DNA from: Squalus acanthias
Lineage: Eukaryota
Length of the DNA stretch: 64,000 bases
NCBI GenBank assembly: GCA_030390025.1
Contig: CM059432.1
Coordinates: 75,642,001 to 75,706,000 of the forward strand
Direction of reading: 5' to 3'
Position 1 is the stretch's first letter. Every line of letters begins with the position of its first letter. Positions 1,547 through 55,920 of this stretch are shown piece by piece. The notes beneath the pieces are model-generated. The model saw nothing but the letters and a program-made list of their open reading frames with translations, searched no databases and was not told the origin of the DNA. The position numbers and the translations under genes are program-made.

Positions 1547-4500
1547 TTTTTTATTATTTGTTTATGGGATGTGGGCGTCACTGGCAAGGCCAGCATTTAT
1601 TGCCCATCCTTAATTGCCACCTTCTTGAAACGCTGCAGTCCATGTGGTGAAGGTACTCCCACAGTGCTATTAGGGAGGGAGTTCCAGGATTTTGACCCAG
1701 CGATGATGAAGGAACGGCGATATACTTCTAAGTCAGGATAGTGTGTGACTTGGAGGGGAACTTGGAGGTGGTGGTGTTCCCATGCATCTGCTGCCCTTGT
1801 CCTTCTAGGTGGAAGAGGTCGCGGGTTTGGGAGGTGCTGCCGAAGAAGCCATGGCGAGTTGCTGCAGTGCCTCTTGTAGATGGTACATACTGCAGCCACG
1901 GTACGCCGGTGGTGGAGGGAGTGAATGTTTAAGGTGGTGGATGGGGTGCCAATCAAGCGGGCTGTTTTGTACTGGATGGTGTCGAGCTTCTTGAGTGTTG
2001 TTAGAGCTGCACTCATCCAGGCAAGTGGAGAGTATTCCATCACACTCCTTACTTGTGCCTTGTAGATGGTGGAAAGGCTTTGGGGAGTCAGGAGGTGAGA
2101 CACTCGCCGCAGAATACCTAGCCTCTGACCTGCTCTTGTTGCCACAGTATTTATGTGGCTGGTCCAGTTAAGTTTCTGGTTAATGGTGACCCCCCAGGAT
2201 GTTGATAGTGGGGGATTCGGCGATGGTAATGCCATTGAATGTCATAGAAACATAGAATCTAGGAGCAGGAGTAGGCCATTCGGCCCGTCGAGCCTGCTCC
2301 GCCATTCAATACGATCATGGCTGATCATCCAAATCCAGTACCCTGTCCCTGCTTTAATCCCCACAGTACACATATCCCACCCTACCCCCGTAACCCCACG
2401 TATTTAATTCCCCCAACATATCCCATCCTATCCCCATAACCCCACATATTTAATCCCCCCTAACACTAAGGGTCAATTTATCATAGCCAAATCAACCTAA
2501 CCCACACATTTTTGGACTGTGGGAGGAAACCGGAGTACCCGGAGGAAACCCACGCAGACACGGGGAGAATGTGCAAACTCCACACAGACATGTCATGGGG
2601 AGGTGGTTAGACTCTCGCTTGTTGGAGATAGTCATTGCCTGGCACTTCTGTGGTGCGAATGTTACCTGCCCCTTATCAGCCCAAGCCTGAACATCAGGTC
2701 TTGTTGCATGCGGGCATGGACTGCTTCATTATCTGTGGAGTTGTGAATGGTGCTGAACACTTTGCAGTCATCAGCGAACATCCCCATTTCTGACCTTATG
2801 TTGGAGGGAAGGTTATTGATGAAGCAGCTGAAGATGGTTGGGCCTAGGACACTGCCCTGAGGAACTCCTGCAGCGTTGTCCTGGGGCTGTGATGATTGAC
2901 CTTCAACCACCACAACCATCTTCCTTTGTGCTAGATATGACTCCAGCCAGTGAAGCGTTTTCCCCCTGATTCCCATTGACTTCAGTTTTACTAGGGCTCC
3001 TTGATGCCAGACTCGGTCAAATGCTGCCTTGATGTCAAGGGCAGTCACTCTCACCTCACCTCTGGAATTCAGCTCCTTTGTCCATGTTTGGACAAAGGCT
3101 GTAATGAGGTCGGGAGCCGAGTGGTCTTGGTGGAACCCAAACTGAGCAAGTGCCGCTTGATAGCACTGTCGATGACACCTTCCTTCACTTTGCTGATGAT
3201 TGAGAGTAGACTGATGGGGCGGTAATTGGCCAGGTTGGATTTGTCCTGCTTTTTGTGGACAGGACATACCTGGGCAGTTTTCCACATTGTCGGATAGATG
3301 CCAGTGTTGTAGCTATACTGGAACAGCGGCTAGTTCTGGAGCACAAGTCTTCAGCACGATAGCCGGGATGTTGTCGGGGCCCATAGCCTTTGCTGTATCC
3401 AGTGCGCTCAGCCGTTTCTTGATATCACGTGGAGTGAATCGAATTGGCTGAAGAATGGCTTCTGTGATGATGGGGACCTCGGGAGTAGGCCAATATGGAT
3501 TATCCACTCGGCACTTCTGGCTGAAGTTGGTTGCAAACGCTTCAGCCTTGTCTTTTGCACTCACGTGCTGGGCTCCACCATCACTGAGGATGGGGATATT
3601 CTTGGAGCCTCCTCCCGTTAGTTGTTTAATGGTCCACCACCATTCACGACTGCAGAGCTTTGATCTGATCCGTTGATTGTGGGATCGCTTAGCCCTGTCT
3701 ACAGCATGCTGCTTCCGTTTTTGAGCATGCATGTAGTCCTGTGTTGCAGCTTCCTCAGGTTGGCACCTCATTTTTAGGCATGCTCTTTTACACTCATTGT
3801 TGGTCCCCTGGCTTGGTGGTAATGGTAGAGTGAGGGATATGCCGGGCCATGAGGTTACAGATTGTGGTGGAATACAATTCTGCTGCTGCTGATAACCCAC
3901 AGCGCCTCATGGATGCCCAGTTTTGAGCTGCTAGATTTGTTCTGAATCTATCCCATTTAGCACAGTGGTAGTGCCACACAACACGATGGAGGGTGTTCTC
4001 AGTGTGAAGACGGGGACTTTGTCTCCACAATGACTGTGCGGTGGTCACTGCTGCCATGGACAGATGCATCTGCGACAGGTAGATTGGTGAGGATGAGGTC
4101 AAGTAGGTTTTTCCCTCTTGTTGGTTCACTCACCACCTGTCGCAGGCCCAGACTGGCAGTTATATCCTTCAGGACTCGGCCAGTAGTGGTGATGGACATT
4201 GAAGTCCTCCACCCAGAATACATTCTGTGCCCTTGCTACCCTCAGTGCTTCTTCCAAGTGGTGTTCAACATGGAGGAGTACTGATTCATCAACTGAGGGA
4301 GGGCAGTAGGTGGTAATCAGCAAGAGGTTTCCTTGCCCATGCTTGACCTAAAGCCATGAGACTTCATGGGGTCCGGAGTCAATGTTGAGGACTCACAGGG
4401 CCACTCCTTCCCGACTGTATACCACTGTGCCACCACCCCTGGTGGGTCTGTCCTGCTGGTGGGACAGGACATACCCAGGGATGGTGATGGAGAAGTTCAG

Positions 4501-4902
4501 GACATTGACTGAAAGGTATGATTCTGTGCGTATGACTATGTCAGGCTGTTGCTTGACTAGTCTGTGGGACAGCTCTCCCAATTTTGGCACAAGTCCCCAG
4601 ATGTTGGTGAGGAGGACTTTACAGGGTTGACTGGACTGGGTGTGCCGCTGCCGTGTCCATAGCCGGTGCTGAGGTCGATGCCGGGTGGTCCGTGCAGTTT
4701 CATTCTTATTATTTTGTTTCATAGCAGTTAGTTACAACTGAGTAACTTGCTAGACCATTTCGGAGGGCAGTTAAGAGTCAACCACATTACTGATACTAGC
4801 TTTTTATTCCAGATTTATTTAATTAACTGAATTTAAATTCCCCAGCTGCCGTGGCCTCTAGGATTATTAGCCCAGTGACATTACCACTACGCTACCGTTC
4901 CC
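1547..4902 (-). mobile_element. Full-length but decayed single-ORF LINE (APE endonuclease + RT, CR1-group-like) with tRNA-derived 5' head
   Basis: EN motifs LLTNIWGL, PDIVI.TES and DRPTRGGG (4393-4722). RT motifs NYRPISLLS, LDIKAAFDRVWHQG, GVPQGSVLGP and FADD (2662-3287). C-terminus at 1597-2235. A-rich 3' tail at 1547. The 5' end reads GGGAACGGTAGCGTAGTGG from 4902. Confidence 0.92.
2246..2589 (-). mobile_element. 5'-truncated V-SINE (HE1-like) with CR1-type tail, inserted in the LINE
   Basis: V-domain GGTTTCCTCCGGGTACTCCGGTTTCCTCCCACAGTCCAAA on -, CR1-type tail GGCCGAATGGCCTACTCCTGCTCC. TSD ATGTCAT at 2239-2245 and 2590-2596. Confidence 0.85.
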
Positions 4903-8289: not shown

Positions 8290-8500
8290 TGGATCATATC
8301 CCCATTTGTTGCATTTTTATAGTGCTTTATCGCATTGTCCAAACACCTCAAAGCTTTTTACATAATGAATCGTTTTTTGAAGTGCACTGGGTGTTATATA
8401 GGCAAATATGGTAGCATTTTGCCACGGCAACATTCCACAAACAGCAACGAGATGAATGACCAATTAGGTGTCAGCCTTGGCTCAGTGGTTGCACTCTCTC
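8290..8500 (-). mobile_element. Degenerate Deu-domain SINE fragments
   Basis: Reverse-complement similarity to the tail of 37990-38458, followed by a short + strand head piece TCAGCCTTGGCTCAGTGGTTGCACTCTC. Confidence 0.55.
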
Positions 8501-14372: not shown

Positions 14373-14419
14373 TAAATTTCTGCTAGTAGAGCCAATTTTG
14401 TTTACTTTTCTGCACTAAT

Positions 14420-14810
14420 TTTTTTTTAAATTCATTCACGGGATGTGGGTGTCACTGGCAAGGCCAGAATATATTGCCCAATGCTAATTGCCCTTAACTG
14501 AGTGGCTTGTTAGGCCATTTCAGAGGGCAGTTAAGAGTCAACCACATTGCTGTGGGTCACACATGTAGGCCAGACCAGCTAAGGGTATGAAATTTCTACA
14601 GGGCATTAGAGAACCAGATGGGTTTTTATGATAATCATTTCATGGTCACCATTACTGATACTAGTTTTATTTTATTCCAGAATTATTAATTAACTCAATT
14701 TAAACTCCACAGCTGTTGTGGTGGGATTTGAACTCAAGTCCCTCAGCATTATTAGTCCAGGTCTCTGGGTTGCTAAGTCCAGTAACATAACTACTACGCT
14801 ACTGAACCCC
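14420..14810 (-). mobile_element. tRNA-derived SINE made of the 5' UTR and 3' UTR of the tRNA-headed LINE
   Basis: A-box-like TAGCGTAGTAG and B-box GAGTTCAAATCCC on -. 14496-14810 matches LINE 5' ends (4735-4902, 37362-37590). 14420-14495 matches LINE 3' tails (1547-1617, 17345-17417, 35098-35167). Confidence 0.88.
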
Positions 14811-15730
14811 AATACTAAATGCTGGTTATAAAATAAGCAAAGGACCCGACTGTACACAGGACTATATGTGTATATTGTAAAATAAGAAGTGAGTTGCTAA
14901 CAGAAGGTTTTATTGTGAATTTACTTTGACTGAGTCCTAGTGCTAAATACTGAAGGCAAAAGGCCTTTCAAAGCATTCATTTGAGATTAACATCAGCTGC
15001 AGGGAACCTGGGGAGATTTGTTTCTGGATGAACACAGTGTTTTTTTTAATGTTGGGGGTGTGCTAGCAAAACAAAGGGTGCAAACTTTACTGTAAAATAA
15101 CTAGTGCCGATCTAAAGGTGGGCACCCTTAGAATTAGTTATTTTTTAGTTAATAAGCTCGCACTTTTTAGAAGGAAAGTTTGTTTCACAATTGATAATAC
15201 AAGAGAACTAATTAATTCTAGCTCATTTTGCGATGCTTTCACCTAAAGCAGTATTTATCATACCTACCCCATAAATTTCCCTTAAACTGTACATAAAATT
15301 GGGGTGCAATTACCCCCAATCAGATCTGCGTTAGTGTGCTATTTTTTAAATTGTCATCTGCTTCAGGACTCCACGGAAAAAACCCCATTACAGTTAACCA
15401 TGATAAAGAGATAGACACACATAGGTGACCTTCAGCAAAGGATATTCCCTTGCAGTGAGCCCATTTATCAGAAAAAAATGGAGACTTGTTTTGTTGACAG
15501 TATGACTATAGCCTTTATTTACAGTAAAGCAAGAATACAGTTGTACACTGGTTTATTTATTGGCAGAGTTGCACTTTACAGAATTTACTGAATTTACAGA
15601 ATTTACAGAAAATTACAGAGAATTTACAGAAAAATACATCAATATAATGAGTCTGTCAGCCTAATTGGGCATATTGGTACAATAATTTTATGCACTTCAA
15701 AATCAGGGTAATTTACTTATTTTTAAGATT

Positions 15731-15992: not shown

Positions 15993-17344
15993 GGGGGGAA
16001 AATTCGTCCCCTTAGCGCCTCCCGTTACCGCCAGTAGATGGCGCTAATGGGCACTAGACCAGTATTGCCGGGGTGAGGCGAATCCAGCGCCGCACGGCAA
16101 ATCCTATCCCCCCATAGCGCCACCAGTAAGAGCTATCGCCGGGAACGTCAACACCAGGTGGATCGTGATGTCAGTGAGCATGCAACGCTCATTGACTGCC
16201 CGATCTGCTAAGTTGATTCTCACCACTTACCTTAGCGCCTGGATTAAACACTGACAGGGCGTGAAGCACCAGGAAGCCGGCTCCAGGGACGTTATTTAAA
16301 GGGATCATCAGTAATCACTCGCAGCTGTCAGGTTAGTGCAGTTTCAGTGGTTTCTTGTCAGTTTCACGTACCGCAAGTTTCATTCAGTAATTTCAAGGTT
16401 CTTTTGTATCAGGAGTCTTGTGGCAACTAAAAAGTAGTTACATTTATTCTTCAAAGAATCAAACTGCTACAATTGGTAACATTAATGGGGGCTATACTGG
16501 CAGTCAACTTCGCCCTCCAGGATCTACGGCGGAGGGAGCATAGGCAGCGAGAAAGACGGGAACATGTGCGCAGAGGGATGAGGAGGGACATCAGGGCTCT
16601 CACCAGGAGGCCTTACCCTCTGAGGGTATTCCGAGAGCACTTCTCCTACCTTCAATTAAGTGAGGCGCAGTGTATTAGATGGCTCCGCTTCACCAAGGAG
16701 GTGGTCACAGAACTCTGCCACCTCCACCAAACAGACCTCCAGCCTTACACCAGGATGACTTAAAGCCCAGATCCCCTTTGCTCATCACATCCCCATCATT
16801 CCATCCGTCTTGCAGGCCATATCACAGTGCAAAGCTGAAATGAGACACACCACAAAAGAATGGTAAGTGAATTAATAAATTTATCAAAAATCAGTGAACA
16901 CATTTTTACACAAAAATATGAACTATTCACCCTTGTGAAATCCCTTAGTGCCTGTCATTACTGTGCCTTTGCCTACTCTAGTGCTCCTACGAAGCGTTGG
17001 CCCACTGGCTGCAGCACGGTCGGTGGAAGGCTGCTGAGTGTCCGTGGGGCAGACTTCAGATGGCCTTGCAGGACGCCCTCGACCAGCTCTGGACCTGGAA
17101 GGCCCGGCTGTAGACTGCACCACCTCAGCATGGGCGGCAGCAGTCTGGGCTGGCTGGATGACAGGCAGCGACAAGGGCAATGGCTGAGTGCCAGTGGTGG
17201 GAGCAGGAATGCTGTCATCCTGAGACAGGACAGCAGGTTCCTGTTCCACTGGCTCACCCTTATCCACCCTGCTCGTTACATCCTCAAAGAACTCCAGCAA
17301 ATTTGGGTTGCATAACCTGCATGCATAAATGCAAAGCAGGAGAT
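15993..17344 (+). mobile_element. Truncated Harbinger of a distinct family
   Basis: Left TIR GGGGGGAAAATTCG after AAG. Transposase N-terminus RRPYPLRVFREHFSYLQLSEAQCIRWLRFTKEVV (16473-16763). Myb-partner C-terminus on - (16923-17245). Confidence 0.8.
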
Positions 17345-17972
17345 TTTTTTTTATTCGCTTATGGGATCTGGGCGTCGCTGGCAAGGCCAGCATTTATTGC
17401 CCATCCCTAGTTGGCCTTGAGAAGGCAGTGGTGAGCCGCCTTCTTAAACTAGTGCAGTCCGTGTGGTGAAGGTACTCCCACAGTGCTGTTAGGTAGGGAG
17501 TTCCAGGATTTTGACCCAGCGACGATGAAGGATTGGCGATATACTTCCAAGTCAGGATTGTGTGACTTGGAGTGGAACTTGGAGGTGGTGGTGTTCCCAT
17601 GCGCCTGCTGCCCTTGCCCTTCTAGGTGGAAGAGGTCGCGGGTTTGGGAGGTGCTGCCGAAGAAGCCTTGATGAGTTGCTGCAGTGCATCTTGTAGATGA
17701 TACACACTGCAGCCACGGTACGCTGGTGGTGGAGGGAGTGAATGTTTAAGGTGGTGGATGGGGTGCCAATCAAGTGGGCTGTTTTGTCTTGGATGGTGTC
17801 GAGCTTCTTGAGTGTTGTTGGAGCTGCAATCATCCAGGCAAGTGGAGAGTATTCCATCACACTCCTGACTTGTGCCTTGTAGAAGGTGGAAAGTCTTTGG
17901 GGAGTCAGGTGGTGAGACACTCGCTGCAGAATACCTAGCCTCTGACCTGCTCTTGTTGCCACATTATTTATG
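17345..17972 (-). mobile_element. 3' fragment of the tRNA-headed LINE family
   Basis: Near-identical to 1547-2155; RAGQRLGIL and YKAQVRSVMEYSPLAWM. Confidence 0.9.
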
Positions 17973-18240
17973 ATAGAAAAGATCATCTCAGTAAAGATAT
18001 CTCAGTGGGGTGATGAAAAGACTTCTAAAAAGTATGAAAGAAAGAAAATTACTAAGACAGTGGGAATACCCAAGGAAATAAGTGAGAAAGTGGGAGAAAT
18101 TAGAAAAATAACACACAAAGGGTGCAGATACAGGACTGAAATACTGAAAAACAAATAGTACGTATATCAGTCCCGAACTATCAGAACTGTATCTGACAAA
18201 GGGTCTTCACTCTGAATATCAACTTGTCTCCCTTCTCCCC
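17967..18240 (+). repeat. Diverged direct repeat, copy B
   Basis: Homologous to 15731-15992 and carries the empty site of the 15993 Harbinger insertion. Confidence 0.75.
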
Positions 18241-18765
18241 TCTGACACATCCACCTCCCCCCACAACTGTTTGCTTTAATAGGGATATAGCTACAGTGTG
18301 AATTTACTGAAGAAAAAAATGTGCAAATTGCTAAGACTGTGGGCCTCTTAAAATGATATGCACCTGTCAGACCTGAATCTAACTGCTGCCTCCAAGCTCT
18401 GCACACGAGCAATAAAATTCAGTGACGTACTGCCCAAATGGCAGTTAAATTTTTAATTTTAAGTAGATAGCTGCTTAATTTCTTAAGATTCTTAAGAATT
18501 TCTGAAGATTCACTTTGCACTGCAGCTAATGTGAAGTCAAAGTGATGATGAACTACATCATCGAGGTGATGTCACATATGATCTGACCAACATCACTCTG
18601 AGTTATATTACACTACTGTTTGTGTTGCTGTTTTGGCCTTAAATCAAAACTATGTTGTATAACTGCCCTGTTAAAACAATAATGGGCTTGTTTTCTTTAC
18701 ATTAACTAGTGACTAGGAAAAAATGCTTTTTATCTGAAGAAATTCTAGCAAAATTTTGTCTTTCG

Positions 18766-19051
18766 GATGAAACGTTAAACCGTCTGCTCTCTCAGGTGGA
18801 CGTTAAAGATCACATGGCACTATTCGAAGAAGAGCAGGGGAGTTATCCCCGGTATCGTGGCCAATATATATCCCTCAATCAACATCACTAAAACAGATTA
18901 TTTGGTCATTATCACATTGCTGTTTGTGGGAGCTTGCTGCGTGCAAATTGGCTGCCACGTTTCCTACATTACAACAGTGACTACACTTCAAAAGTATTGG
19001 AATGTCCGGTGGTCGTGAAAGGCGCTATATAAATGCAAATCTTTCTTTCTT
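18766..19051 (+). mobile_element. 5'-truncated Deu-domain SINE
   Basis: AAAGATCACATGGCACTATTCGAAGAAGAGCAGGGGAG...GGCGCTATATAAATGCAA(TCTT)n; matches 38136-38458. Confidence 0.85.
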
Positions 19052-20807: not shown

Positions 20808-21340
20808 CATAGAACATAAGAACATAAGAAATAGGAGCAGGAGTAGGCCAATTGGCCCCTCGAGCCTGCTCCGCCATTCAATAAGATCATGGCTGATCTG
20901 ATCCTAACCGCCAATCTACTATCACAGAGCCATCTCCTGAATCTAACAGAATTGGACACACGAAATAGGAGCAGGATCAGGCTACACGGCCCCTGGGCCC
21001 GCTCCGCTACCCACAGGGCCATGACCGATCCGAACCTAGACTCATGTCCAAATTCCTGCCCGCTCCCCGTAACCCTTAATTCCCTTTACTTCTAGGAAAC
21101 TGTCTATTTCTGTTTTAAATTTATTTAATGATGTAGCTTCTACAGCTTTTTGGGGCAGCATATTCCATGAACCTACCACCCTCTGAGTGAAGTAGTTCCT
21201 TCTCATCTCAGTTTTGAAAGAGCAGCCCCTTATTCTAAGACTATGTCCCCTAGTTCTAGTTTCACCCATCATCGGGAACATCCTCCCCGCATCCACCCGA
21301 TCCAACCCCTTCACAATCTTTTATGTTTCAATAAGATCTA
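20808..21340 (-). mobile_element. CR1 LINE 3' fragment with doubled 3' UTR
   Basis: MKGLDRVDAGRMFP...TRGHSLRI...FTQRVVGSWNMLP (21042-21314) and (TTCTTATG)n tail. Confidence 0.9.
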
Positions 21341-23153: not shown

Positions 23154-25276
23154 GTGGGCGAAATTCGGTTGGTTAGCGCCTGGCGGCAGGAACGACAGCT
23201 ACAGGGGGACAGTGCACAGTCGGCTGGGAGCTTGGGGAGCACTATTTAATGGCGCGCACGTCCTACGTTCTCCCATCAGCAAACTATTCTGCCTATGCAC
23301 GCTGAGAGGAAGAGAAGCGTTTGGAGGGACTTCACGCTTCCACACTTGAGGGACTATTGGTCGGCAGAGAAACTTATCAGTTTCTCATTTCTGTTACCTT
23401 TGCTGCAGCAACACTTTGAAGATTTAATGGGGGCTCCTTGCTCGAGCTGTGTGAGCGGCTGCAGCTCTGCCTGCCCGCCTCCCATGCGCTGCTGCTCCCT
23501 CCTGTTGTGGGCCAGCTTGGCCTGCAAGAAAAAGGACAACGTGTGAGTGATTCTGCAACCATGTGTTTGCCACATGTGCCTACCATAGTTGAATAGCTGT
23601 TAATGTCTGCGGGGTGTGAGATGTGGATGTGACATTTAGTAGGTGGGCATAGTTGGTGGTTGTGCTTTGGGGATATGGCAGTATATACAGTCTGTGCACA
23701 CAGTGGGGTTGGGATGGTGGAATGAAGAGGTTTTTGAAGCATGTACTCACCCTGACCACCCGAGTGAGGTCGTTGAACTTCTTCTGACACTGGGTGTTCA
23801 TTCTTCCCACCACACTTCTGGAGGAGACATACTGGGCCACCTCCCTCCACAGCCTTGAAAATTCCCGGGGCAATGGCCTCTTGTCAGTGTTTGGGAACAG
23901 CAGTCCCCATCGCCATTCGACTGCCACGACCAGAGCCTCCAATGCCTGGTCACTGAAGCAGGCTCTCTCCCTAGGCCCCCAATGCCTGGTCACTGAAGCA
24001 GGCTCTCTCCCTAGGCCGCCAATGCCTGGTCACTGAAGCAGGCTCTCTCCCGAGGCCCCCAGTGCCTGGTCACTGAAGCAGGCTCTCTCCCTAGGCCCCC
24101 AATGCCTGGTCACTGAAGCAGGCTCTCTCCCTAGGCCCCCAGTGCCTGGTCACTGAAGCAGGCTCTCTCCCTGGGCCTCCAATGCCTGGTCACTGAAGCA
24201 GGCTCTCTCCCTGGGCCTCCAGTGCCTGGTCACTGAAGCAGGTTCTCTCCCTGGGCCCCCAATGCCTGGTCACTGAAGCAGGCTCTCTCCCTAGGCCTCC
24301 AGTGCCTGGTCACTGAAGCAGGCTCTCTCCCTGGGCCCCCAATGCCTGGTCACTGAAGCAGGCTCTCTCCCTGGGCCCCCAATGCCTGGTCACTGAGGCA
24401 GGCTCTCTCCCTGGGCCCCCAGTGCCTGGTCACTGAAGCAGGCTCTCTCCCTGGCCCCCAGTGCCTGGTCACTGAAGCAGGCTCTCTCCCTGGGCCCCCA
24501 ATGCCTGGTCACTGAGGCGGTGGGCTCTCTCCCTGGGCCCCCAATGCCTGGTCACTGAAGCAGGCTCTCTCCCTGGGCCTCCAGTGCCTGGCCACTGAAG
24601 CAGGCTCTCTCCCTGGGCCTCCAGTGCCTGGCCACTGAAGCAGGCTCTCTCCCTGGGCCTCCAGTGCCTGGTCACTGAAGCAGGCTCTCTCCCTGGGCCC
24701 CCAGTGCCTGGTCACTGAAGCAGTGAGCTCTCTCCCTGGGCCTCGAATGCCTGGTCACTGAAGCAGGCTCTCTCCCTGGGCCTCCAGTGCCTGGTCACTG
24801 AAGCAGGCTCTCTCCCTGGGCCCCCAATGCCTGGTCACTGAAGCAGGCTCTCTCCCTGGGTCTCCAATGCCTGGTCACTGAAGTGGTGGGCTCTCTCCCT
24901 GGGCCTCTGCAATGCCATCACTGTCTCAGTGCAAGGTTTGAGGCTCCCTCCAGGACCAGGTCACAAGCAGCAATGAGAAGGGTGCGGCTGTGCAGGATGC
25001 TTGAACCTCCCCTTTAAGAACTGGTAGGTGCCGCCGGTATGTCTGATTAGTTGTGATTCACAGCCCCTGGCCTTGGGTAGCGCTCTGAGGCAGCGCCCCG
25101 CTCCCCGACGTTAGCGCCCTAAATGGGGTGTGTGGCACTTGATTTAGTGCTGCAGTCACCTCCAGGGGCGTTGGAGGAGAATATCGCAGAGTCCGGCGAT
25201 AATTCTCGCCAGGTGTTAATGGTTGCGCCCGGCCAATGTTAGCGCCCCAAAATGGACGATACCGAATTTCTCCCCC
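23154..25276. mobile_element. Internally deleted Harbinger containing a minisatellite
   Basis: TIRs GTGGGCGAAATTCGGT and GGGGGAGAAATTCGGT, TSD GAG. Myb exons on - (FSDQALEALV...WREVAQYVS...QCQKKFNDL; AKLAHNRREQQRMGGG). Confidence 0.9.
23936..24907. repeat. 40-bp minisatellite, about 24 units
   Basis: Unit (A/C)A(A/G)TGCCTGGTCACTGAAGCAGGCTCTCTCCCT(A/G)GGCC(C/T)C in head-to-tail array, with one 39-bp and three 43-bp variants. Confidence 0.97.
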
Positions 25277-34555: not shown

Positions 34556-34615
34556 ATTTTCTACATTCAGGGATCCAAGCCAGGAGCACAGCCTGGATCC
34601 CTGAATGTAGAAAAT
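34556..34615. repeat. Perfect 22-bp inverted repeat (hairpin)
   Basis: ATTTTCTACATTCAGGGATCCA, 16-nt spacer, TGGATCCCTGAATGTAGAAAAT. Confidence 0.95.
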
Positions 34616-34618
34616 GCT

Positions 34619-34903
34619 CAGATAATCTGTTTTAGTGATGTTGGTTGAGAGCTACAGATTGGCCAGGATAACTGGGGAGAACTCTCCTGCTCTTCTTCGG
34701 AATAGTGCCATGGAATCTTTTATATCTATCTGAGAGGGAAGACAGGGTATCGGTTTAACATCTTGTCCGAAAGACAGCACCTCCGGCAGTGCAGCACTCC
34801 CTCAGTCAGCCTAGATTTTGTGCTCAAGTCTCTGGAGTGGGACTTGAACCCACAATCTTCTGACTCAGAAGTGAGAGCTCTACCCACTGATCCACAGTTG
34901 GCA
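34619..34903 (-). mobile_element. Deu-domain SINE, 3'-truncated
   Basis: tRNA head TGGATCAGTGGG...GGTTCAAGTCCC on -, body matches 37990-38290. Confidence 0.85.
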
Positions 34904-34904
34904 C

Positions 34905-37590
34905 GGAAGGTGGTGGTGGGCCTTCTCCTTAAACCACTGTAATCTTTGTTGTAATGGTGCTCCTACAATGGCATTAGGTAGGAAATTCCATGGTCGCTGG
35001 GTCAAAATCCTGGAACTCCCTACCGAACAGCATTGTGGGAGTACCTTCACCACATGGACTGCAGCGGTTCAAGAAGAAGGCTCACCACCACTTTCTCAAG
35101 GGTAATTAGGGATGGGCAATAAATGCTGGCCTTGCCAGCATCGCCCACGTCTTGAAAATTAAAAAAATACTGACCCAGCGATGATGAAGGAATGATGGTC
35201 AGTATATGCCCAAGTGTGTGACTTGAGGGAAACTTGCAAGTGACGGTGTTCCCATGATCTTACTGCCTTTATCCTTCTTGGCAGTTGCAGAGCTGGGAGG
35301 TATTATCATAGTAAGCTTAATGAGTTGCTGTAGTGCATCTTGTAGATTATACATATTGCAGACACATGGTGGAGGGGGTGGATATTGAGCTTAGTGTCCA
35401 GGGCACTGATCAAGTGGACTGCTCTGTCCTGGATGGTGTTGAGCTCTTTGAGTATTATGGCTGCACCTAACTGGGCGCGTATTCCATCACACTTCTGACT
35501 TGAGCCTCATAGATGGTGGAGAGGCTTTGAGGGGTCAGGACGTGAGTCAACCGTTGCAGAGTACCCAGCATCTGCCCTGCTCCTGTAGCCACAGTGTTGA
35601 TATGGCTGGTCCAGTTCAGCTTCTAGTCAATGGTGACCCTCAGGATGTTGATAGTTGGGGACTTAGTGGTTGAAGGTGGAGGGCTTTAATTTGGCATTCT
35701 CTTGTTGATGGTCATAGCCTGGCCCGAATGTTACCTGCCTCTTGTCAGCCCAATCCTGGATGTTGTCCAGGTCCTGCTGTAGATGGGCATGGCCTGCTGC
35801 ATTATTGGAGGAGTTCTAATGGGAACTGAGCACTGTGGAATCATCAGTGAAGAGTTCTAATCCTGACCTTGTCCTGACCGAGGGAAAGTTATTGATGAAA
35901 CAGCTGAAAATGGTTCGACCAAGAGCACTGCCATTAGAAACATCTACATCAATGTCCTGGGGCTGCAATGATTGGGCTCCAGCAGCCACGACCATCTTCC
36001 TGTATGTTAGGTATGACTTCAGCCACTTTATCTCAGTTTTGCTAGGTCTCCTTGGTACCATACTCGGTTGACTGCTGCATTGATGTCAAAGGCAGCTACT
36101 CTGCCTCTCCTCTGGAATTCAGCTCTTGCATCCATGTTTGGATCAAGGTTGTAATAAATTCAGCAGCTTAACGGTTCTGGTGGACCCTGAACTGAGCACC
36201 AGTGAGCAGGTTATTGGTGAGTAGATGCCACTTGATGGTGCTATTGGTTACTTCCTCCATCGCTTTGCTGATGGTTAGGAGGAGGATGCTAGGGTGATAT
36301 TTGGCCAGGTTAGATTTGTCCTGCTTTTCTGTAGATAGGATATAGCAGGGCAATTTACCACATTGTCAAGCAAATGCCAGTATCATAGCTGCCTTGGAAT
36401 AGCTTGGTTAGGGATTGCCTAGTTCTGGCATACTTCAACACTACAGCCCAGATGTTATCAGGACCCAGTGCCTTTACTACGTCTTATATTCTCAGGTGCT
36501 TCTTAATATCATGTGGAGTGAATCAAATTGGCTGGTTAATGGCATCTATGATAGTGGGGACCCCAGGAGGAGGCCAAGTAGGATCATCCACTCAGCACTT
36601 TTGGCTGAAGACACTTTGCAAGCATGTCAGCCTTTTCCCGTAGACTCACGTATTGGGCTCCATGACGGTTGAGGATGGAGATATTCATGAATCCTCACCT
36701 TCCCGTTAGTTGCCTGGTTGTCCAGCACCATTTTTGATTTGGATGTAGTAGGGCTACAGAGATTTGCTCTGATCCATTGGTCATGGGACTGCTTAGCTCT
36801 GTTTGTAGCCTGGGGCTTTTGGTGTTTTGCATGCAGGTAACCTTGTGTTGTAGTTTCACTAGATTGGTCGCTCATTCTAAGGTATGCCTAGTGCTGCTGA
36901 TGGCACGCCCTTCTGTACTCTGGATTGAGTCAGGGTTCATCTCTAGTCTAATGTAAATGGATGAGTAAGGGATGTGCTGGGTCATGAAATTACAGCTTGT
37001 GGTGGTGTATAATTCTGCTGCTGTTGATGGCCCACAGTGCTTCATGGATGCCTAGATTTGGGTAGCTGAATCTGTCGCTACCTCTAATGGGTCTATTCTG
37101 CCATTGGTGACTGGGTACTCCCAAGTAATATTATGGAGGACTCTGGGATATTGGCTGATAGATATGATTCTAAGAGAACAACTGTGTCAGACTGTTGCTC
37201 GATTAGTCTCTGGGACAGCTCTCCCAGCTTGGTAAGAGGGCTTTGCAGCGTTGACTGGGTTAGAATTTCCGGAGTCTTGTCTTGATTTAATGCCTAGGTT
37301 GTTGCTGATAGGTTTGTCCGATAATTCTCTTATTGTTCCAATAATGTAGAAACTGTTTTACAACTGAATGGCTTGCTGCAGAGGGCAATAAGAGTCGACC
37401 AGATATTGAGTCACATGTAGTTCAGACCAAGTAGGGGTGGCAGGTTCCCTTCCCTGAAGGACATTATTGTATCAGTTGGGGTTTTACGACAATCAAACAG
37501 TCCCCATGCTAATTTTTCTGGTGCTAGCCTACAGATTACCAGAATTATCAAATTTAGTTTCCCAACATCCCATGGTGGGAGATGAACTTA
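34905..37590 (-). mobile_element. Second, older copy of the tRNA-headed single-ORF LINE
   Basis: Collinear with 1547-4902 (KQDKSNLAKY, TIFSCFINN). 5' region 37362-37590 matches the SINE body and B-box. Probable A-box remnant beyond the MITE at 38685-38718. Confidence 0.85.
34995..35167 (+). mobile_element. Younger 3' fragment of the same LINE inserted antisense into the older copy
   Basis: AGSKSWNSLPNSIVGVPSPHGLQRFKKKAHHHFLKGN*, then 3' UTR and A-tail. Confidence 0.85.
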
Positions 37591-37592
37591 TT

Positions 37593-38682
37593 GGCCTTGA
37601 TTTAACACCAACCCCCCACCCCCAACCCCCCGCCGCACCCCTTGACAGGCGGGAGTGGGTCGGGAGGGTTGGTTAAATATCAGGATCAGGCAATGTGACC
37701 CCCTTCCCACCTCTTTAAATTTTGAAGTGCAGAAATCAGGCAATGTTTGAGGCTCCCGCAAAAGGCAGGCTAGGGCCTAATTAACATACAAAAGTCACGG
37801 CCTGATGACATATTCGGAGGTGCGACTTACATTTCACAGTAAGTGAGGGGGAGGCCCAAACTGAGGGATTCCTGGCAGCTGATCCGAGGCGGGAGCTGCC
37901 CCCTCTCCAAGGGAAGTGGCTCTTTTAGCATTCCTTGTGGGCCTTGTGGAGCAGGAGTTCTCACCCCAGGCACCACCAGGAAGCCTTCAGTGTCAGCTGT
38001 GGCTCAGTTGGTAGCACTCTCGCCTCTGAGCCAGAAGGTTGTAGGTCCTGGGTACCACTCCAGAGACTTGAGCACAAAAATCTAGGCTGACACTCCAGTG
38101 CAGTACTGAGGGAGTGCTGCACTGTCAGAGGTGCCGTCTTTCAGATTAGCCATTAAACCAAGGGCCCGTCTGCTCCCTCAAGTGGATGTAAAAGATCCCA
38201 AGGCACTATTTTGAAGACGAGCGGGGGAGTTATCCCAGGTGTCCTGGCCAATATTTATCCCTTAATCAACATCACTTAAAAAATAGGTTATCTGGTCATT
38301 ATCGCATTGCTGTTTTTGGGAGCTTGCTGTGCGCAAATTGGCTGCCGCGCTTCCTATATTACAGCAGTGACTACACTTCAAAAATTACTTCATTGTCTGT
38401 AAAGTGCTTTGGGACGTCCGGTGGTCGTGAAAGGTGCTATATAAATGCAAGTCTTTTTTCATCCTCCTCCAGCCTCAATCGCCAGCCTCCCCACAGCCCT
38501 ACCGATCTCAAACCTCCGCCCAGCCCTCCTGCCGTTAGTGTTCCCTCCTGGCTTCCGGGCGGGAGGCAGCCTTACAATATGCTAATGAGGACCTGCTGTT
38601 AAGATTGGCAGATCCTCTACGTCCCCAGCCTGGCCGTGTTCCCTATGCCACTGCGCTTCCTCGCACCCTCCCCGTAAATATC
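37593..38682. mobile_element. Harbinger-type MITE interrupted by a Deu-SINE
   Basis: Starts GGCCTTGATTTAAC; shared GGAGCAGGAG motif and GC-rich subterminal boxes. Right end degenerate. Confidence 0.55.
37990..38458 (+). mobile_element. Full-length tRNA-derived Deu-domain SINE (SacSINE1-like)
   Basis: A-box TGGCTCAGTTGG, Deu core GATGTAAAAGATCCCAAGGCACTATT...GGTGTCCTGGCCAATATTTATCCC, tail GCTATATAAATGCAAGTCTTT. Confidence 0.88.
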
Positions 38683-39455
38683 TATTATTGCTAATCATAA
38701 GCACCAGGCTACTACACCTTGATTTCTGTCTGCAGCTTCTGTGAATTTGAGCGAGTGATGATCAGCTTCAGGACAGGAAATAAATGCTGTTGAAAAATGT
38801 AGGAAATCCTTGAAATGGCTAGAATGTGACAGGAGAGTTCAACTGTTGTGTCGGTTTGATTTTGAGGCTTTTTGAAATTTGGTATGGATAGCCCACATCA
38901 AAGAATACAAAAGCACGTGCATGTGTACACAGACACACACTGAAAGAATTTAGTTTCTCTGACCTTGACTCTACAATTAAAGTAAACAGGAAAAATACAT
39001 CAAAAGCAGCACTTATTGATGAGGGCTGACTGGAGCTTAGGGAATTTGCAGTAGCAGGTTATCAGCAGAGCGCTGAGGCTTGCTCGAGTTTTCTTCTGCT
39101 CTCTCAGTTTATCGGCCGTCAATCTCCCACCTCTCCCACTGCTCAATTGGTAGAAATCTCACACTAATGGAAGGTGGATGCTTAATTTCTATAATCTGCC
39201 CAGACATCAGATTTAAATAAATCGAATGAAATTATCAAAGGTACTCTTTTTACCAGTTTGCACATCAGTTTATTGTATATGGGTTTAAAACCAGATATTT
39301 GTGCATTTCAAATATAACAAAAGCAGCTCTTTAAAGAAAATAAAGTTCCCAAGACTCATTTCACACTACATTTTAATCACAAAATATGTATGTTCAGGAA
39401 AAAATGGTGCATGATTTGCAGAGCAAATATTTATACAGGTTATTGTATTAAAATA

Positions 39456-46082: not shown

Positions 46083-46494
46083 ATAGTGTCATGAGTTTGA
46101 CTTTTTAAGGTCTCCTTATAAATTCAGATCATTTTTGCTTCATATTGCCCGTCACTTTAAAAAAATAGTATTTTGTACTGCAGAGTGGTACGATGCACAT
46201 TTATCCTTGTGATCTTAGCCATGCCATCAGAGAGAACATTAGAGAAAAGGGAGGTTCTTTTCTAGAGGAGCTAGGTAACATCAGAGGCTAGTTAACAGCA
46301 GGCTGCTTTTAAGCAGTTCCCATTACCTGGTTCATGAACAGCACTGGCACAGGCTGGTCACTGAACATGCATGGCTCAAAGAGCAAAGAAATCTAATTTT
46401 AAGGGATAAATCTAAAGTAAGTTTCATTAGACTTGCTTACTTAGATAGACCTTAAGATTTGACAAGCAAATGTTCACATTTTTAGGCATATAAA

Positions 46495-49400
46495 GCCAAA
46501 ATGTTAAATCCAGTTTTCCTCAGTTCAAGTACATTTTGTATTTATCAGTACAGTACTGCTATGTGGTCTCATTGAAATGATTGAGCATACTCACATTAGA
46601 AGTAAGACTGGAAAATAAAGATGTTCCAGAATATACAATGCATACTGTCCTGGACATGCCTTCAGGACACTTATTGAAGTGCATAAGAAGCAAAGCTTTG
46701 AAAAATGGCTAGCCAATAATATAAGGCCGCGTCTATTTGCAACACCAAATTTCTGATTGGTCCCCTTGGAGGACAACACATACCCAACAGTTTGTCTGGA
46801 ATGTGTAATTTGATCCTGCCTGTTGTAGACAACCCTGCAATGTGTAAATTGATACATTATACAAAATGTGGAAGTCTAGTTAGCTTTGTGAAGATCCTCT
46901 GTTAATAGTATTCTGCAATTGTAATTATAGTTGTCCTTGGCTGGTAAAATAAAAGACTTTAAACTCTAATTAGTGGGTTAGTTAATTCTTTGGAGTTTTA
47001 TGTTTTTTTTTCCTTCTGGAAGTGATAAAACTTCTTTAATTCTGAAAGAAGGGACCATGTGTGGGGTCCGTTTGTGTGGTGTGTGGGTGTTTTGCTCATA
47101 AATGCTGCTCCTAAGGTTTCCCCAGAGTTTGTAGCTCTGGATTGTTGCAGATTGAACTGCAGGTTCAGGCCAGAACCTTGTGAGGGAGCCGAGTGCGGCA
47201 CAGACGGAGCGCTGAGCTTTTCTTTCCAGTAATAACATATGAAAGTATTCTTGTCAGTTTGAAACATATGGAAGTAATTAAGTGTTTCAGTATCAAATGA
47301 ATCCTTACACCTTGAGAATTAAAGCCTTATTCACTCAGAACACATTTAAGTCTTTTAATTTGTGATGGCCCATTTCAAAGCTCTCTGTTTAAACCTAACC
47401 TATAGTAAATAATATGTTGTTATTGTGACTTTCTGTTTATCTCAGGGGACAGGTCTGTACAGGTGGGTAATGCAAAAACAGCATTGCTGGCTTGTGTGAG
47501 TGCGCTGCAAGTTCAACTTGCCCAGAACAAAATGGCATAAAGCATTCAACATAACCAATGGCATCTATTTATGTTTGTCTCTCATGTCTCCGCACCACCT
47601 CCTGTGTGGAAGAAACTAAGATTTCCCAATTCACAAACTTTGGGCTTTTGATTTGATTTTAATCTTGCTATCAGTAGCAAACCCCTGCCCCTGATCTTTC
47701 AGAAGGCCAAAATTCAAAATCCAGTTTTCCTCAATTCAAATACATTCTGTATTTATCAGTACAGTACTGCTATGTGGTCTCATTGAAATGATTGAGCATA
47801 CTCACATTAGAAGTAAGACTGGAAAATAAAGATGTTCCAGAATATACAATGCATACTGTCCTGGACATGCCTTCAGGACACTTATTGAAGTGCATAAGAA
47901 GCAAAGCTTTGAAAAATGGCTAGCCAATAATATAAGGCCGCGTCTATTTGCAACACCAAATCTCTGATTGGTCCCCTTGGAGGATAACACATACCCAACA
48001 GTTTGTCTGGAATGTGTAATTTGATCCTGCCTGTTGTAGACAACCCTGCAATGTGTAAATTGATACATTATACAAAATGTGGAAGTCTAGTTAGCTTTGT
48101 GAAGATCCTCTGTTAATAGTATTCTGCAATTGTAATTATAGTTGTCCTTGGCTGGTAAAATAAAAGACTTTGGGGTAAAAATTCACTTGGTTGCGCCTCC
48201 CGTTAGCGCCTTAAGAGGGCGCTAATGGGGCGCAAAGCCGCTAACGCCCGGGCGCAGCGATGTTTGCGCCGCTCGAGAACTTAACTTGAGATTGTGCGGC
48301 GGCGCTAAAACTTACCGCTGCGACCACCTGCGCGCGCAGATTGTGACGTCATTCCATGGTGCAACGCCCTTGTGGCGCCCCGTAGCGGAAATTGAGTGGC
48401 GCCCCCTGCCTTACCACCTGGCGCTTCCAACGACCGGAAGACTGGAACGCTATCAATCGCTGTGGGGCTGGGGGGGGCGCTATTTAAAGGGGGCCTCTTC
48501 CTGTCTTTTATTGTTGGTGGCATTTTTGAACTACGCATTCTGAGAGAGAGAGGGAGAGACTTCTGGAGAGATTCAATGTTGTGTGAAGGAGTTTTGGGTA
48601 CTGAGCAGCACTTTGCAGGTTCATTTTGATTTGCCATTCCTTGTATCGATTTAGCAGAGACTGTGGGAGCTGCACTCTGAGCTCTTTGCCTGGTACTCTC
48701 CATTGTTCTTTCCAGCACATTTGATGTGCAAGTCTCTCCAGGCCGAGATTCAAGGCAGCAATGAACAGGATGTGGATGGAAAGCAAGATTAACCATCCCC
48801 TTTAAGAACTGGCCCGTGCCATTGTGTGTGTGTTCCATTGCTGACTGACATTACATGAGCTTCGCCAGCGCTCCGAGTTAGCGCCTCACTGCTCGGCCTT
48901 TGCGCCTTAAGAGAGGTGTGCAGCGCCTGCTTTAGCGCTCCACTCACCTCCCGGGGCGGTAAAAGTGAAGTTTCCTGTCAGTGCCGATAATTAGCGCCAG
49001 GTGCTAATATTTGCGTCCAGACGATATTTGCGCCCCAAATGGGGCGCGACCTAATTTCTACCCCTTTAGATTCTAATTAGTGGGTTAGTTAATTCTTTGG
49101 AGTTTTATGTTTTTTTTTCCTTCTGGAAGTGATAAAACTTCTTTAATTCTGAAAGAAGGGACTATGTGTGGGGTCCGTTTGTGTGGTGTGTGGGTGTTTT
49201 GCTCATAAATGCTGCTCCTAAGGTTTCCCCAGAGTTTGTAGCTCTGGATTGTTGCAGATTGAACTGCAGGTTCAGGCCAGAACCTTGTGAGGGAGCCAAG
49301 TGCGGCACAGACGGAGCGCTGAGCTTTTCTTTCCAGTAATAACATATGAAAGTATTCTTGTCAGTTTGAAACATATGGAAGTAATTAAGTGTTTCAGTAT

Positions 49401-49812
49401 CAAATGAATCCTTACACCTTGAGAATGAAAGCCTTATTCACTCAGAACACATTTAAGTCTTTTAATTTGTGATGGCCCATTTCAAAGCTCTCTGTTTAAA
49501 CCTAACCTATAGTAAATAATATGTTGTTATTGTGACTTTCTGTTTATCTCAGGGGACAGGTCTGTACAGGTGGGTAATGCAAAAACAGCATTGCTGGCTT
49601 GTGTGAGTGCGCTGCAAGTTCAACTTGCCCAGAACAAAATGGCATAAAGCATTCAACATAACCAATGGCATCTATTTATGTTTGTCTCTCATGTCTCCGC
49701 ACCACCTCCTGTGTGGAAGAAACTAAGATTTCCCAATTCACAAACTTTGGGCTTTTGATTTGATTTTGATCTTGCTATCAGTAGCAAACCCCTGCCCCTG
49801 ATCTTTCAGAAG
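46495..49812. repeat. Recent 1211-bp tandem duplication (46495-47705 and 47706-49812, the latter carrying a MITE)
   Basis: Near-identical sequence with offsets of 1211 before the MITE and 2107 after it (paired ORFs 46591/47802 and 46978/49085). Confidence 0.97.
48172..49064. mobile_element. Harbinger MITE (893 bp)
   Basis: TIRs GGGGTAAAAATT and GGGGTAGAAATT. TTT TSD confirmed by the empty site at 46958-46960. Confidence 0.95.
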
Positions 49813-50988
49813 GCTTTCGATAAGGTCCCGCATAAGAGATTAGCATGCAAAGTTAAAGCACATGGGATTGGGGGTAAGGTACTGATTTGGATAGAGAACT
49901 GGTTGGCAGACAGGAAGCAAAGAGTTGGAATAAACGGTTCTTTTTCCGAGTGGCAGGCAGTGACTAGTGGGGTACCACAGGGATCGGTGCTAGGACCCCA
50001 GTTATTCACAATATATATTAATGATCTAGACGAGGGAACTAGATGTAATATCTCTAAGTTTGCAGACGACACAAAGCTGGGTGGGCGTGTGTGCTGTGAG
50101 GAGAATGCAGAGAAACTCCAGTATGATTTGGACAGGTTGGGTGATTGGGCAGATGCATGGCAGATGCAGTATAATGTGGATAAATGCAAGGTTATCCACT
50201 TTGGTGGCAAAAACAGGAAGACAGATTATTATCTGAATGGCAATAGATTGGGAAAAGGGGAAGTGCAACGAGATCTGGGAGTCCTTGTGCACCAGTCGCT
50301 GAAGGTAAGCATGCAGGTGCAGCAGGCGGTTAAGAAGGCAAATGGTATGTTGGCCTTCATAGCGAGAGCATTCGAGTACAGGAGCAAGGTTGTCTTGCTG
50401 CAGTTATACAAGGCCTTGGTGAGACCACACCTTAAGTATTGTGTGCAGTTTTGGTCACCTTATCTGAGGAAGGATGTTCTTGCCATGGAGGGAGTGCAGC
50501 AAAGATTTACCAGACTGATACCTGGGATGGCAGGAAAAACGTATGAAGAGAGATTGGCTCGATTAGGCTTATATTCGCTAGAGTTTAGAAGAATGAGAGG
50601 GGATCTCATTGAAACTTATAAAATTCTAACAGGACTAGACAGACTAGATGCAGGAAGGATGTTCCCGATGGCGGGGGAGTCCAGAACCAGAGGTCACAGT
50701 CTAAGGATAAGGGGTAAGCCATTTAGGACTGAGATGAGGAGGAATTTCTTCACCCAGAGAGTGGTGAACCTGTGGAATTCTCTACCACAGAAGGCAGTTG
50801 AGGCCAATTCATTAAATATATTCAAGAAGGAGAGAGATATATTTCTTAATACTAAAGGGATCAAGGGATATGGGGAGAAAGCAGGGACAGGGTACTGAAT
50901 TTGGATGATCAGCCATGATCTCATTAAATGGCGGAGCAGGCTCGAGGGGCCGAATGGCCTACTCCTGCTCCTATCTTCTATGCTTCTA
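49805..50988 (+). mobile_element. Young 5'-truncated CR1 LINE with open RT C-terminal frame
   Basis: FQKAFDKVPH...SGVPQGSVLGPQLF...FADDTKL, open to 50898 (331-aa ORF). Conserved 3' tail. Candidate TSD TGATCT. Confidence 0.95.
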
Positions 50989-51034
50989 TGATCTCCTTGT
51001 ATAGTCAGGTTGGAGAGCGCGAGAGGCGGCAGAG

Positions 51035-53689: not shown

Positions 53690-55920
53690 ATAAAAAAATA
53701 AAGGAAGAGTGAAAGAGTGCATAGGACCACTCTAGATTGAAGGAGGTAGTCTAATTTTAGAAGATCAAGATATGACAGAGATAATAAATAAATATTTTGC
53801 ATCTTTTTTTTACAAATGATGGTGCAAGAGAATGTAGGTTTACTAATGGAACAATTGTTAGAGATAGCTTTAGAAGAGGAATGGATTCTGGAAAAATAGC
53901 ACAACTCAAGTGGGTTAAGTCACTGCTCCCTGGTGGCATACACCTTAGGTTGTTGAAAGAAGTCAAAGAGGATTGTTTGCCCACAACTTGTCAGTCCTCT
54001 TTAAACATACACATTGTATCATGGGACTGAAGCCAATCTTACACCTTTGTTCAAGAATGGAGCGAAGGGTAAACCAAGTAACTATAGACCAGTTAGTCTA
54101 ATGTCAGTTGTGAACTAACTCTTGGAATACATAATTCAAAATGAAATTAGTGAGCATTTAGAATTGCAGGGTTTAATCAAGGACAGATGGCACTGATTTG
54201 TTGAAGGCAAGTAATGTTTGACAATATTAATATAGTTTTTCTGAAGAAGTGACTGATATCATGCAGTGGATGTACCTGGATCTTTAGACGGTCTTCAGTA
54301 AGGTGCCTCACAAGAGGCTTGTTAGAAAAATTCAAGTGTATGGTGTAAAAGGAAATGTCGCAGTAGGGATAGAAAGCTGGTTGATGGACTCGAATAAATG
54401 TGTTCGGGTAAATGGGCATTTATTGGATTGGAGAAGCATTGAAGTGATGTATCGCAGGGGTCAGTGTTGAAACAACTTTTGTTGTCAGTATATATTAATG
54501 ATTTGGACTTGGGAACACAATCTTAAACCAGAAATCCCAAGTGAATGATCCTTCTCGGCCTCCTCCTGAGAGCCCCACCATCACAGTGGCCAGTCTTCAG
54601 CCAATTCAATTAATTCCTCGTGATATCAAGAAACGGCTGAGCACACTGGACACAGCAAAGACTATGAGCCCCAACAACATCTCGGCTATGGTGCTGAAGG
54701 CCTGTGCTCCAGAACTAGCCAGGCCTCTAACCAAGCTGCTCCAGTACAGCTACAACACAGTCATGTGGAAAATTGCCTAGCTTTGTCCTGTCCACAAAAA
54801 GCAGGACAAATCCAATCCACCCAATTACTGCCTCATCAGCCTACTCTCAATCATCAGCAAAGCGAAGGAAGGTGTTGTCGACAGTGCTGTCAAGCATCAC
54901 TTATTCACCAATAACCTGCTCACTGATGTTCAGTTTGGGTTCTGCCAGGACCACTCGGCTCCAGACTTCATTACAGCCTTGGTCCAAACAAGAGCTGAAT
55001 TCGAGAGTTGAGAGTGACTACCCTTGACATTAAGGCAGATTTCGACTAAATATGGAACCAGGGAGCCTTAATAAAACTGAAGTCGATGGGAGCCAGGTGG
55101 AAAACTTGCCAGCGGCTGGAGTGATACCTGGCACAAAGGTTGTGGTTGTAGGAGGACAATCATCTTAGCTCCAGAACATTGCTGCAGGAGTTCCTCAGGG
55201 CAGCGTCCTAGGCTCAACCATCTTCAGCTGCTTCATCAATGACCTTCTCTCCATCATAAGGCCAGAAGTGGGGCTGTCTACTAATGATTGCACAGTGTTC
55301 AGCTCCATTTGCAATTCCTCAGAAAATGACCTGGACAATATCCAAGCTTAGGCTGTTAAGTGGCAAATAACATTCGTGCCACACAAGTGCCAGGCAATAA
55401 CCACCTCCCAAAGCCTCCCCACCACCAAAAGGCACAAGTCAGGAGTGTGATGGAATATTTGCCTGGATGGAGGCTCGACACCAGGTTGATTCCATGGATT
55501 GGAAACTATAGTTAAAAGGAAAGATTTAAGATGTTGGGATTATTTCCACTGGAGCAAAGAAGGCTAAGAAGAGATTTTATAAAGGTTTTAAAAATTAGTA
55601 TTTTGATACAGTGAATACAGATTTGTTTAGTTGGGGAATCAGTAGCAAGAGGTCATTAATTTTAAATTGTTACGAGGACAAAGGTTACGAGAAATTCCTT
55701 TATGCAGAAGATTGTTGGTTTTGCCACAGGGAGTGGTTGAGGCAAAGACCATTGCATCTTTTAAGGGAAAGTTGTATAAATATTTGAAGCAGAGGAAGAT
55801 ACAGAGCTATGGGGAAAACATGGAGCACTGGGATTAGTTTGTGATTGCTCTAGCAAAGATCTGGCACAGACACATCGAGCCAAATGATATCCTTTAGTTC
55901 TGCAAATCTCTATGGTTGTA
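53690..55920 (+). mobile_element. Old CR1 LINE relic interrupted by another LINE
   Basis: KPSNYRPVSLMS and QGSVL remnants (54060-54520); 3' region resumes at 55485-55920. Confidence 0.75.
54530..55482 (+). mobile_element. Internal RT fragment of the tRNA-headed LINE family
   Basis: PRDIKKRLSTLDTAKTMSPNNISAMVLKACAPELARPL and GVPQGSVLG; collinear with 2040-3510 reversed, with deletions. Confidence 0.88.

Follow-up and report, generated by a model that had tools for sequence, protein, structure and literature searches.

A SINE/LINE pair of sharks and rays, HE1 and HER1, was reportedly described by Ogiwara in 1999, and HER1 is a CR1-like element. The two have a 3' tail in common (available text of PMC3747384). 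SINEs are considered chimeras, made of LINE-derived parts that received a small-RNA head, and where their bodies come from has been called 'enigmatic' (PMC5786205). Bipartite non-autonomous LINEs are represented by RIME from Ingi, Bov-A from Bov-B, the RTE-N and Vingi derivatives and the R2 derivatives (Kojima 2018, PMC5786205), and the SINEs Bov-tA, AfroSINE and SINE2_Gav were built on such elements (PMC5786205). The only producers of bipartite derivatives named in that paper are RTE, Ingi, Vingi and R2, and 5' parts entered SINE bodies only from RTE and Vingi (PMC5786205). One sentence of the same paper assigns to RTE-1_DAn, relatives included, a tRNA-like sequence matching many SINE2 elements, matches which the authors left out of consideration (PMC5786205), and a term search of the available part of its supplement did not return the name RTE-1_DAn. 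Retrotransposons with a small-RNA-derived Pol III promoter have been described as TRIMp3 (Cassandra, Helenus and Ajax), and Pol III was argued to limit their length, which reaches up to about 1.3 kb (Kojima 2024, available text of PMC10886601). The known shark SINEs added to the repeat library of PMC10468316 were, according to its available text, only HE1 and SacSINE1.

In this study, we analysed a window of Squalus acanthias DNA (the whole stretch, 64,000 nucleotides) which contains a SINE together with pieces of its partner LINE. The SINE appears to be a real two-part derivative of a LINE with a putative tRNA head, formed by the bipartite route, with the head unusually placed on the autonomous element. 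Like bipartite LINEs, it has the 5' and 3' ends of an autonomous single-ORF partner with the ORF removed; in the SINEs built on bipartite LINEs, however, the tRNA head joined later than the deletion and the LINE does not carry it (PMC5786205), whereas in the shark it sits on the LINE. Since the head is on the LINE, deletion alone would give a complete SINE. The shark LINE has a reverse transcriptase (RT) that groups with amphioxus- and wrasse-labelled single-ORF elements, in a tree without an RTE or Vingi reference. RTE-1_DAn is, like the shark LINE, an autonomous LINE with a tRNA-like sequence, but it belongs by name to another clade, and PMC5786205 gives no position, promoter role or derived SINE for it. 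SacSINE1 and the Deu-SINEs, with the L2-2_CM tail, resemble the present SINE as tRNA-headed SINEs of cartilaginous fish with a LINE-derived tail; for SacSINE1 the tail alone was reported as common with a LINE, in contrast to head, body and tail here (available texts of PMC5499810 and PMC2746220). The TRIMp3 elements are short, non-coding LTR elements, whereas the headed shark LINE is about 3 kb long and coding (available text of PMC10886601). HE1 is a V-SINE, and the RT of the headed LINE falls outside the starred group with bird CR1 and the CR1-like element of the window. Our literature search, conducted outside Repbase, Dfam and most subscription papers, found no account of the headed shark LINE or its SINE, and motif searches in the available parts of paper texts and supplements gave no match; the family may already be catalogued under some name.

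Structure of the SINE

The A-box consensus is TRGCNNARYGG and the B-box consensus is GTTCRANNC. The pattern of both boxes was matched once in the whole window, by the SINE, and in 0 of 100 shuffles. As in SINE2 elements, the internal Pol III A and B boxes lie at the 5' end and the 3' tail is common with the partner LINE and A-rich at its end; as in bipartite non-autonomous LINEs, the element joins the two ends of an autonomous LINE without the ORF. By sequence comparison, the SINE combines the 5' and 3' ends of a single-ORF endonuclease/RT LINE which itself starts with that head, and contains nothing else. The coordinates of all features are listed in Table 1.

Table 1. Positions in the window of the SINE and of the pieces of the LINE family
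Feature	Position	Strand	Description
SINE	14418..14810	-	G-rich start, A and B boxes, body, LINE-type tail, A-rich end
SINE A box	14791..14801	-	one mismatch to TRGCNNARYGG
SINE B box	14725..14733	-	matches GTTCRANNC
SINE body	14496..14724	-	homologous to LINE 5' UTR up to junction base 14496
SINE tail	14418..14495	-	last three LINE codons, stop, 3' UTR with predicted nested stem-loop, A-rich end
LINE copy A	1547..4902	-	head start and A box, junction base 4736, ATG 4722, decayed APE-RT ORF, tail
LINE copy B	34920..37591	-	5' UTR with a B-box remnant and the whole body, junction base 37362, no tail
Possible A-box half of copy B head (weak)	38688..38718	-	beyond nested insertion of about 1.1 kb
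LINE 3' fragment, 5'-truncated	34987..35167	+	last codons at 35098-35109; 180 bp
LINE 3' fragment, 5'-truncated	17343..17973	-	ORF end intact, and tail
LINE copy C, internal RT fragment of the headed-LINE family	54517..55473	+	

The head had been regarded in the sequence-only reading as a tRNA head common to SINE and LINE. The homology stood, while its tRNA nature is suggested by the A and B boxes and their position, with no tRNA fold detected: ARAGORN at default settings found no tRNA at the SINE head, and a search of the head against Rfam gave no match with E up to 5. Relaxed ARAGORN settings gave a match at the head, which is worth little because 138 unrelated loci yielded 48 hits even under a stricter setting. 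Between the boxes (14739-14782, minus strand), the head contains two units of about 22 nt, each starting with CTGGACT and 11/22 identical in register, compared with one such unit in the head of LINE copy A; they are possibly a duplicated anticodon arm. Folding of the SINE body gave no signal (z 0.40 and 1.80). The nested stem-loop of the tail was predicted in 3/3 LINE tails, while the SINE's own tail folded no better than shuffles (z 0.44) and no compensatory changes were seen in the 16 pairs of the stem.

Junction of the SINE

On the minus strand the SINE reads ...GCCACTCAGTT followed directly by AAGGGCAATTAG, where the last T is base 14496 and the first A is base 14495, as had been claimed. 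LINE copies A and B both leave the SINE at base 14496 and continue with GTAA, while the SINE continues with AAGGG. From 14495 on, the SINE consists of the last three codons of the LINE, its stop and its tail, with zero SINE-specific bases. The sequence AAG GGT AAT TAG at 35098-35109, previously taken as the end of the LINE ORF, was confirmed as such and lies in the 180-bp 3' fragment on the plus strand. The description of the ORF as cleanly removed is approximate, since 13 nt of the 5' UTR were lost as well and three codons and the stop were kept; the start codon is no more than 13 nt, and the end of the ORF no more than 12 nt, from the join.

The window contains one copy of the SINE. A full protein scan with the SINE translation gave four matches, two of them real (P0190 and P0193); P0191 and P0192 were dropped as repetitive chance matches. 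P0193 is a protein from a 589-bp ENA contig. Its residues 43-60 match SINE positions 14550-14497 (17/18), and residues 61-71 follow with no gap and match the LINE tail at 35096-35128 (9/11). Read off the translation and not from DNA, this implies that P0193 carries the SINE junction with one extra base, and a single T at the join that could come from either side. P0190, a whale shark gene model, contains the body up to the junction region and is silent on the join. Outside the window, the SINE body was seen only in these two records. A word-index protein search with the SINE translation returned no candidate, and DNA pattern scans of viral and metagenome contigs and prokaryote genomes, collections that hold little shark DNA, returned 0 matches. 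The junction, which should not vary between copies according to the sequence-only reading, was the same within one base in P0193, the only other copy seen. Because P0193 is an independent record with this junction, the SINE is probably a family, represented by two copies, one in the window and one as a translation.

LINE copies in the window

With the SINE as nhmmer query, the window gave seven matches with E under 1e-8 and one weak match (E 0.28). The matches were the SINE itself, three LINE tails, two 5' pieces of copy A and one 5' piece of copy B. The left part of the SINE had been said to match the LINE 5' UTR up to the junction, and this homology, including that of the head, held under formal alignment with both copies. 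Against SINE positions 14802-14496, copy A is identical at 141/158 bases aligned in blocks (145/165 with other gap settings) and has deletions of 22, 19 and 105 nt, of which the 19-nt deletion takes out the B box. Its A box at 4884-4894 is a full match to the consensus, and a G run 8-9 nt ahead of the A box opens both the SINE and copy A. The first 43 nt of the SINE head scored 36 against copy A, compared with a maximum of 22 in shuffles (0/2000). Copy B (37591-37362) matched SINE positions 14737-14496 with nhmmer E 8.5e-14; it is identical to the left part at 156/205 bases, with a score of 120 against a shuffle maximum of 61.5 (500 shuffles). Copy B is older and about 69% identical to copy A in the ORF. 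Its B box is degenerate (12/2000 shuffles scored equally well), and its possible A-box half is weak, since 24/2000 shuffles and 9/1132 window tiles scored as high. An intact head is found on none of the LINE copies of the window, copy A being without a B box and copy B having a degenerate one. The tail of the SINE is identical to the three LINE tails at 52/63, 52/66 and 51/63 positions.

After the junction, copy A has an in-frame TAA and then the first in-frame ATG, 13 nt past the junction, which leaves no space for an ORF1 between head and ATG. The ORF is single, decayed and of APE-RT type (RVT_1, E 7.4e-22). Pfam called no domain on its 106-aa N-terminal piece, which is 36% identical (E 2e-22) to the endonuclease part of the related protein P0169. 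With endonuclease and then RT in one ORF and a tail with an A-rich end, the partner LINE fits an APE-type non-LTR element. The ORF ends with KGN before the stop, and the shark gene models P0149 and P0150 end with LLEGN and LRKGN. The best-named protein matches of the LINE are gene models from Heterodontus, Mobula and Heptranchias. LINE or body pieces also lie inside predicted genes of Heterodontus, Mobula, Heptranchias and Rhincodon (P0001, P0087, P0149, P0150 and P0190); these are likely annotation artefacts and show the range of the family. In a sequencing-run word index, 14/24 rows contained at least half of the words of the copy A region; three runs guessed to be RNA contained about 0.4 of them and were not counted as expression evidence. 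Just before the junction, a mini-frame of start codon, one codon and stop is present in the SINE (14510-14518, minus strand) and in copy A (4750-4758, minus strand), where it shares the frame of the main ORF; copy B has lost this mini-frame through a deletion.

Relatives of the LINE and placement of its reverse transcriptase

In nhmmer searches with E up to 2, the SINE matched none of 138 related LINE loci on contigs of marine invertebrate type. Most of the loci are 28-40% relatives of the query, and the closest group (45-48% identical) comes without upstream DNA. Two of the loci matched the pattern of A and B boxes, in each case downstream of the ORF only. Because none of the 138 loci matches the SINE, the LINE lineage seems to have gained its head later. 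We considered the lack of an ORF1 as a scar of head capture and rejected this, since several of the fetched relatives also have one long ORF with the same basic N-terminal extension.

Five relatives on different contigs (L002, L006, L007, L010 and L082, among 74 loci with upstream DNA) have a conserved block of about 200 nt in the 5' UTR, possibly a promoter or a structured RNA. An origin of the SINE body from this block was rejected: its profile found nothing in the SINE, copy A or copy B, and the best match in the window (E 0.44) lies elsewhere. This rejection covers the 74 loci with upstream DNA, with the closest relatives (45-48%) outside. Fifty-eight loci (L081-L138) are LINEs of animal type inside prokaryote genome bins, mostly symbiont bins, probably as host contamination.

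The RT motifs of the LINE look like those of the CR1/Jockey group. The RT tree had 38 rows and 151 columns, with no row for the CR1-like element at 49762-50898 and none for a named element of L2, Crack, Daphne, RTE or Vingi. In this tree, the sister of the shark RT (86/79, unstarred) is a starred group that includes proteins with Branchiostoma and Xyrichtys labels. The shark RT lies outside the starred sets which hold bird CR1, Jockey and the RNase H-bearing rows. The LINE differs from the CR1 clade proper in that its RT is outside the starred set of bird CR1 and there is no space for an ORF1. The relative P0169 returned only generic RT clusters in the ESM Atlas.

T runs and possible Pol III transcription of the LINE

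Sense-strand T4 runs were counted in four pieces of the LINE family (6817 nt), which are related and not independent. One run was observed, while 11.8 were expected by base shuffle (0/1000 as low) and 6.2 by dinucleotide shuffle (11/1000). T3 runs, pooled over the same-family pieces, numbered 29 against 53.5 expected. Under the dinucleotide shuffle no single copy was significantly depleted of T4 (copy A, 59/500), and copies A and B together gave 58/1000. A3 runs were likewise low in the LINE pieces (98 vs 121, 5/1000). The three closest fetched relatives had 12 T4 runs against 12.6 expected, without depletion, and the CR1-like elements of the window had 9 against 5.7.

The T4 depletion would fit Pol III transcription of the LINE, without showing it. 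The earlier designation as a Pol III LINE is kept here as a conditional one: judged from the sequence, we give transcription of the headed LINE by Pol III a little over an even chance. The LINE may instead be a Pol II element, transcribed by read-through or from an internal promoter, in which the tRNA-like head is a passenger and only the SINE uses Pol III; we regard this as a real though rather doubtful possibility, and it can hold together with an origin of the SINE by deletion. Pol III RNA has no m7G cap, which speaks for the Pol II element, as does the weakness of the per-copy T4 depletion under the dinucleotide control. Furthermore, non-LTR retrotransposons are described as transcribed by Pol II and Pol III products as short (available texts of PMC10886601 and PMC5786205). 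Against it, the pooled T3/T4 depletion is absent from the closest relatives and from the other retroelements of the window, and the element starts where Pol III would be expected to start, just ahead of the A box.

Origin of the SINE

The sequence-only reading had left two alternatives, namely that the SINE arose by internal deletion of the LINE or that the LINE captured the head of the SINE. The two are not exclusive, because the LINE lineage must first have gained its head from a tRNA or an older SINE. We consider it probable that the LINE gained the head first and that an internal deletion then produced the present SINE. Deletion is favoured over capture because nothing at the seam is private to the SINE; deletion would yield the exact seam by itself, while capture would need a break exactly at the seam of body and tail.

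According to the deletion model, a single-ORF LINE lineage would have acquired the putative tRNA-derived head together with the body, the donor being either a tRNA gene or an older SINE. The headed LINE would then have been transcribed by Pol III from the internal boxes, with selection against T4 terminators over 3 kb. Its uncapped RNA might be translated, as a guess, through cap-independent entry provided by the body or the 13-nt spacer. Next, the ORF would have been lost in a deletion with at most 1 nt of microhomology, caused by DNA repair or by a template jump in reverse transcription; promoter and RT-recognition tail would have stayed, giving a ready-made SINE. The SINE would finally be copied in trans by the LINE enzyme through target-primed reverse transcription using the common tail stem-loop, a process which is established for other SINE/LINE pairs.

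If instead the SINE were older, the LINE would have captured its head and body by a template switch in reverse transcription, which we think unlikely. The head must have been gained at some point, as the invertebrate-type single-ORF relatives are without it (0/138 loci), and template switching of SINE/LINE modules has been described (available texts of PMC5499810 and PMC4824008). Capture is also compatible with the three-way comparison of the SINE, copy A and copy B (14, 5 and 3 private changes in 92 columns), which places no root. The divergence of copies A and B by codon position (23/22/30%) points to mostly neutral decay and is uninformative on direction. On the other hand, no SINE-only bases are left, and neither LINE copy has tail bases in its 5' UTR. 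The SINE is close to copy A at both ends (145/165 at the 5' end and 52/63 in the tail); with its 5' part 88% identical to copy A and the head already on the old copy B, there is little room for a long independent evolution of the SINE.

That the element is no SINE family, and that one decayed LINE copy suffered a deletion once, is very improbable in our view. The 64-kb window has just a single such copy, a clear target-site duplication was not observed, and old copies collect many deletions here, as copy A shows; but the independent record P0193 has the same junction within one base, and the join lies as near to both ends of the ORF as given above. The head of copy A itself could come from recombination with an upstream SINE, because the host has lost about 650-750 bp where copy A is inserted. 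In favour of the deletion origin, the host element stops at 4906, right at the head of copy A, and resumes at 1550.

With the deletion origin preferred here, the body of this SINE has a known source, the headed LINE. As head, body and tail are all on one autonomous LINE, the birth of a SINE would be possible in a single deletion. If Pol III reads the LINE, this polymerase would make a protein-coding transcript of about 3 kb and the LINE would be a rare kind of coding element; if this is true, one could test directly whether a retrotransposon ORF is translated independently of a cap and whether terminators are selected against within coding sequence.

Surrounding repeats

The element into which copy A is inserted is presumably Harbinger-like, to judge from its ORFs, and its paralogues near 42 kb and 58 kb have the 650-750 bp that it lacks at this site. 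The ORF of copy A is interrupted in the RT C-terminal region by an unrelated repeat of about 360 bp, whose end matches repeats at 20815-20898 and 50871-50991. This repeat looks like a V-SINE (HE1-type); the SINE gave no nhmmer match to it.

A second SINE family of the window, of Deu type, occurs at 37990-38460 (plus), 34586-34908 (minus), 18757-19048 (plus) and 8309-8465 (minus), and is probably SacSINE1-type. The Deu text printed in the available part of the PMC5786205 supplement matches this family by eye, from 38131, and an identity of the present SINE with SacSINE1/Deu was rejected; the Deu-type family has no nhmmer match to the SINE region 14412-14812. Positions 34586-38700 form a nested stack, in which copy B is interrupted by a younger 3' fragment from its own family in inverted orientation and ends at a Deu-type SINE, and the GC-rich insertion in its head contains another Deu-type SINE. 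The window also contains a minisatellite at 23935-24905 (40-bp unit, 24 copies, 93% matches) and a recent local duplication, in which 46492-47707 is 98-99% identical to 47703-48171 and 49064-49814.
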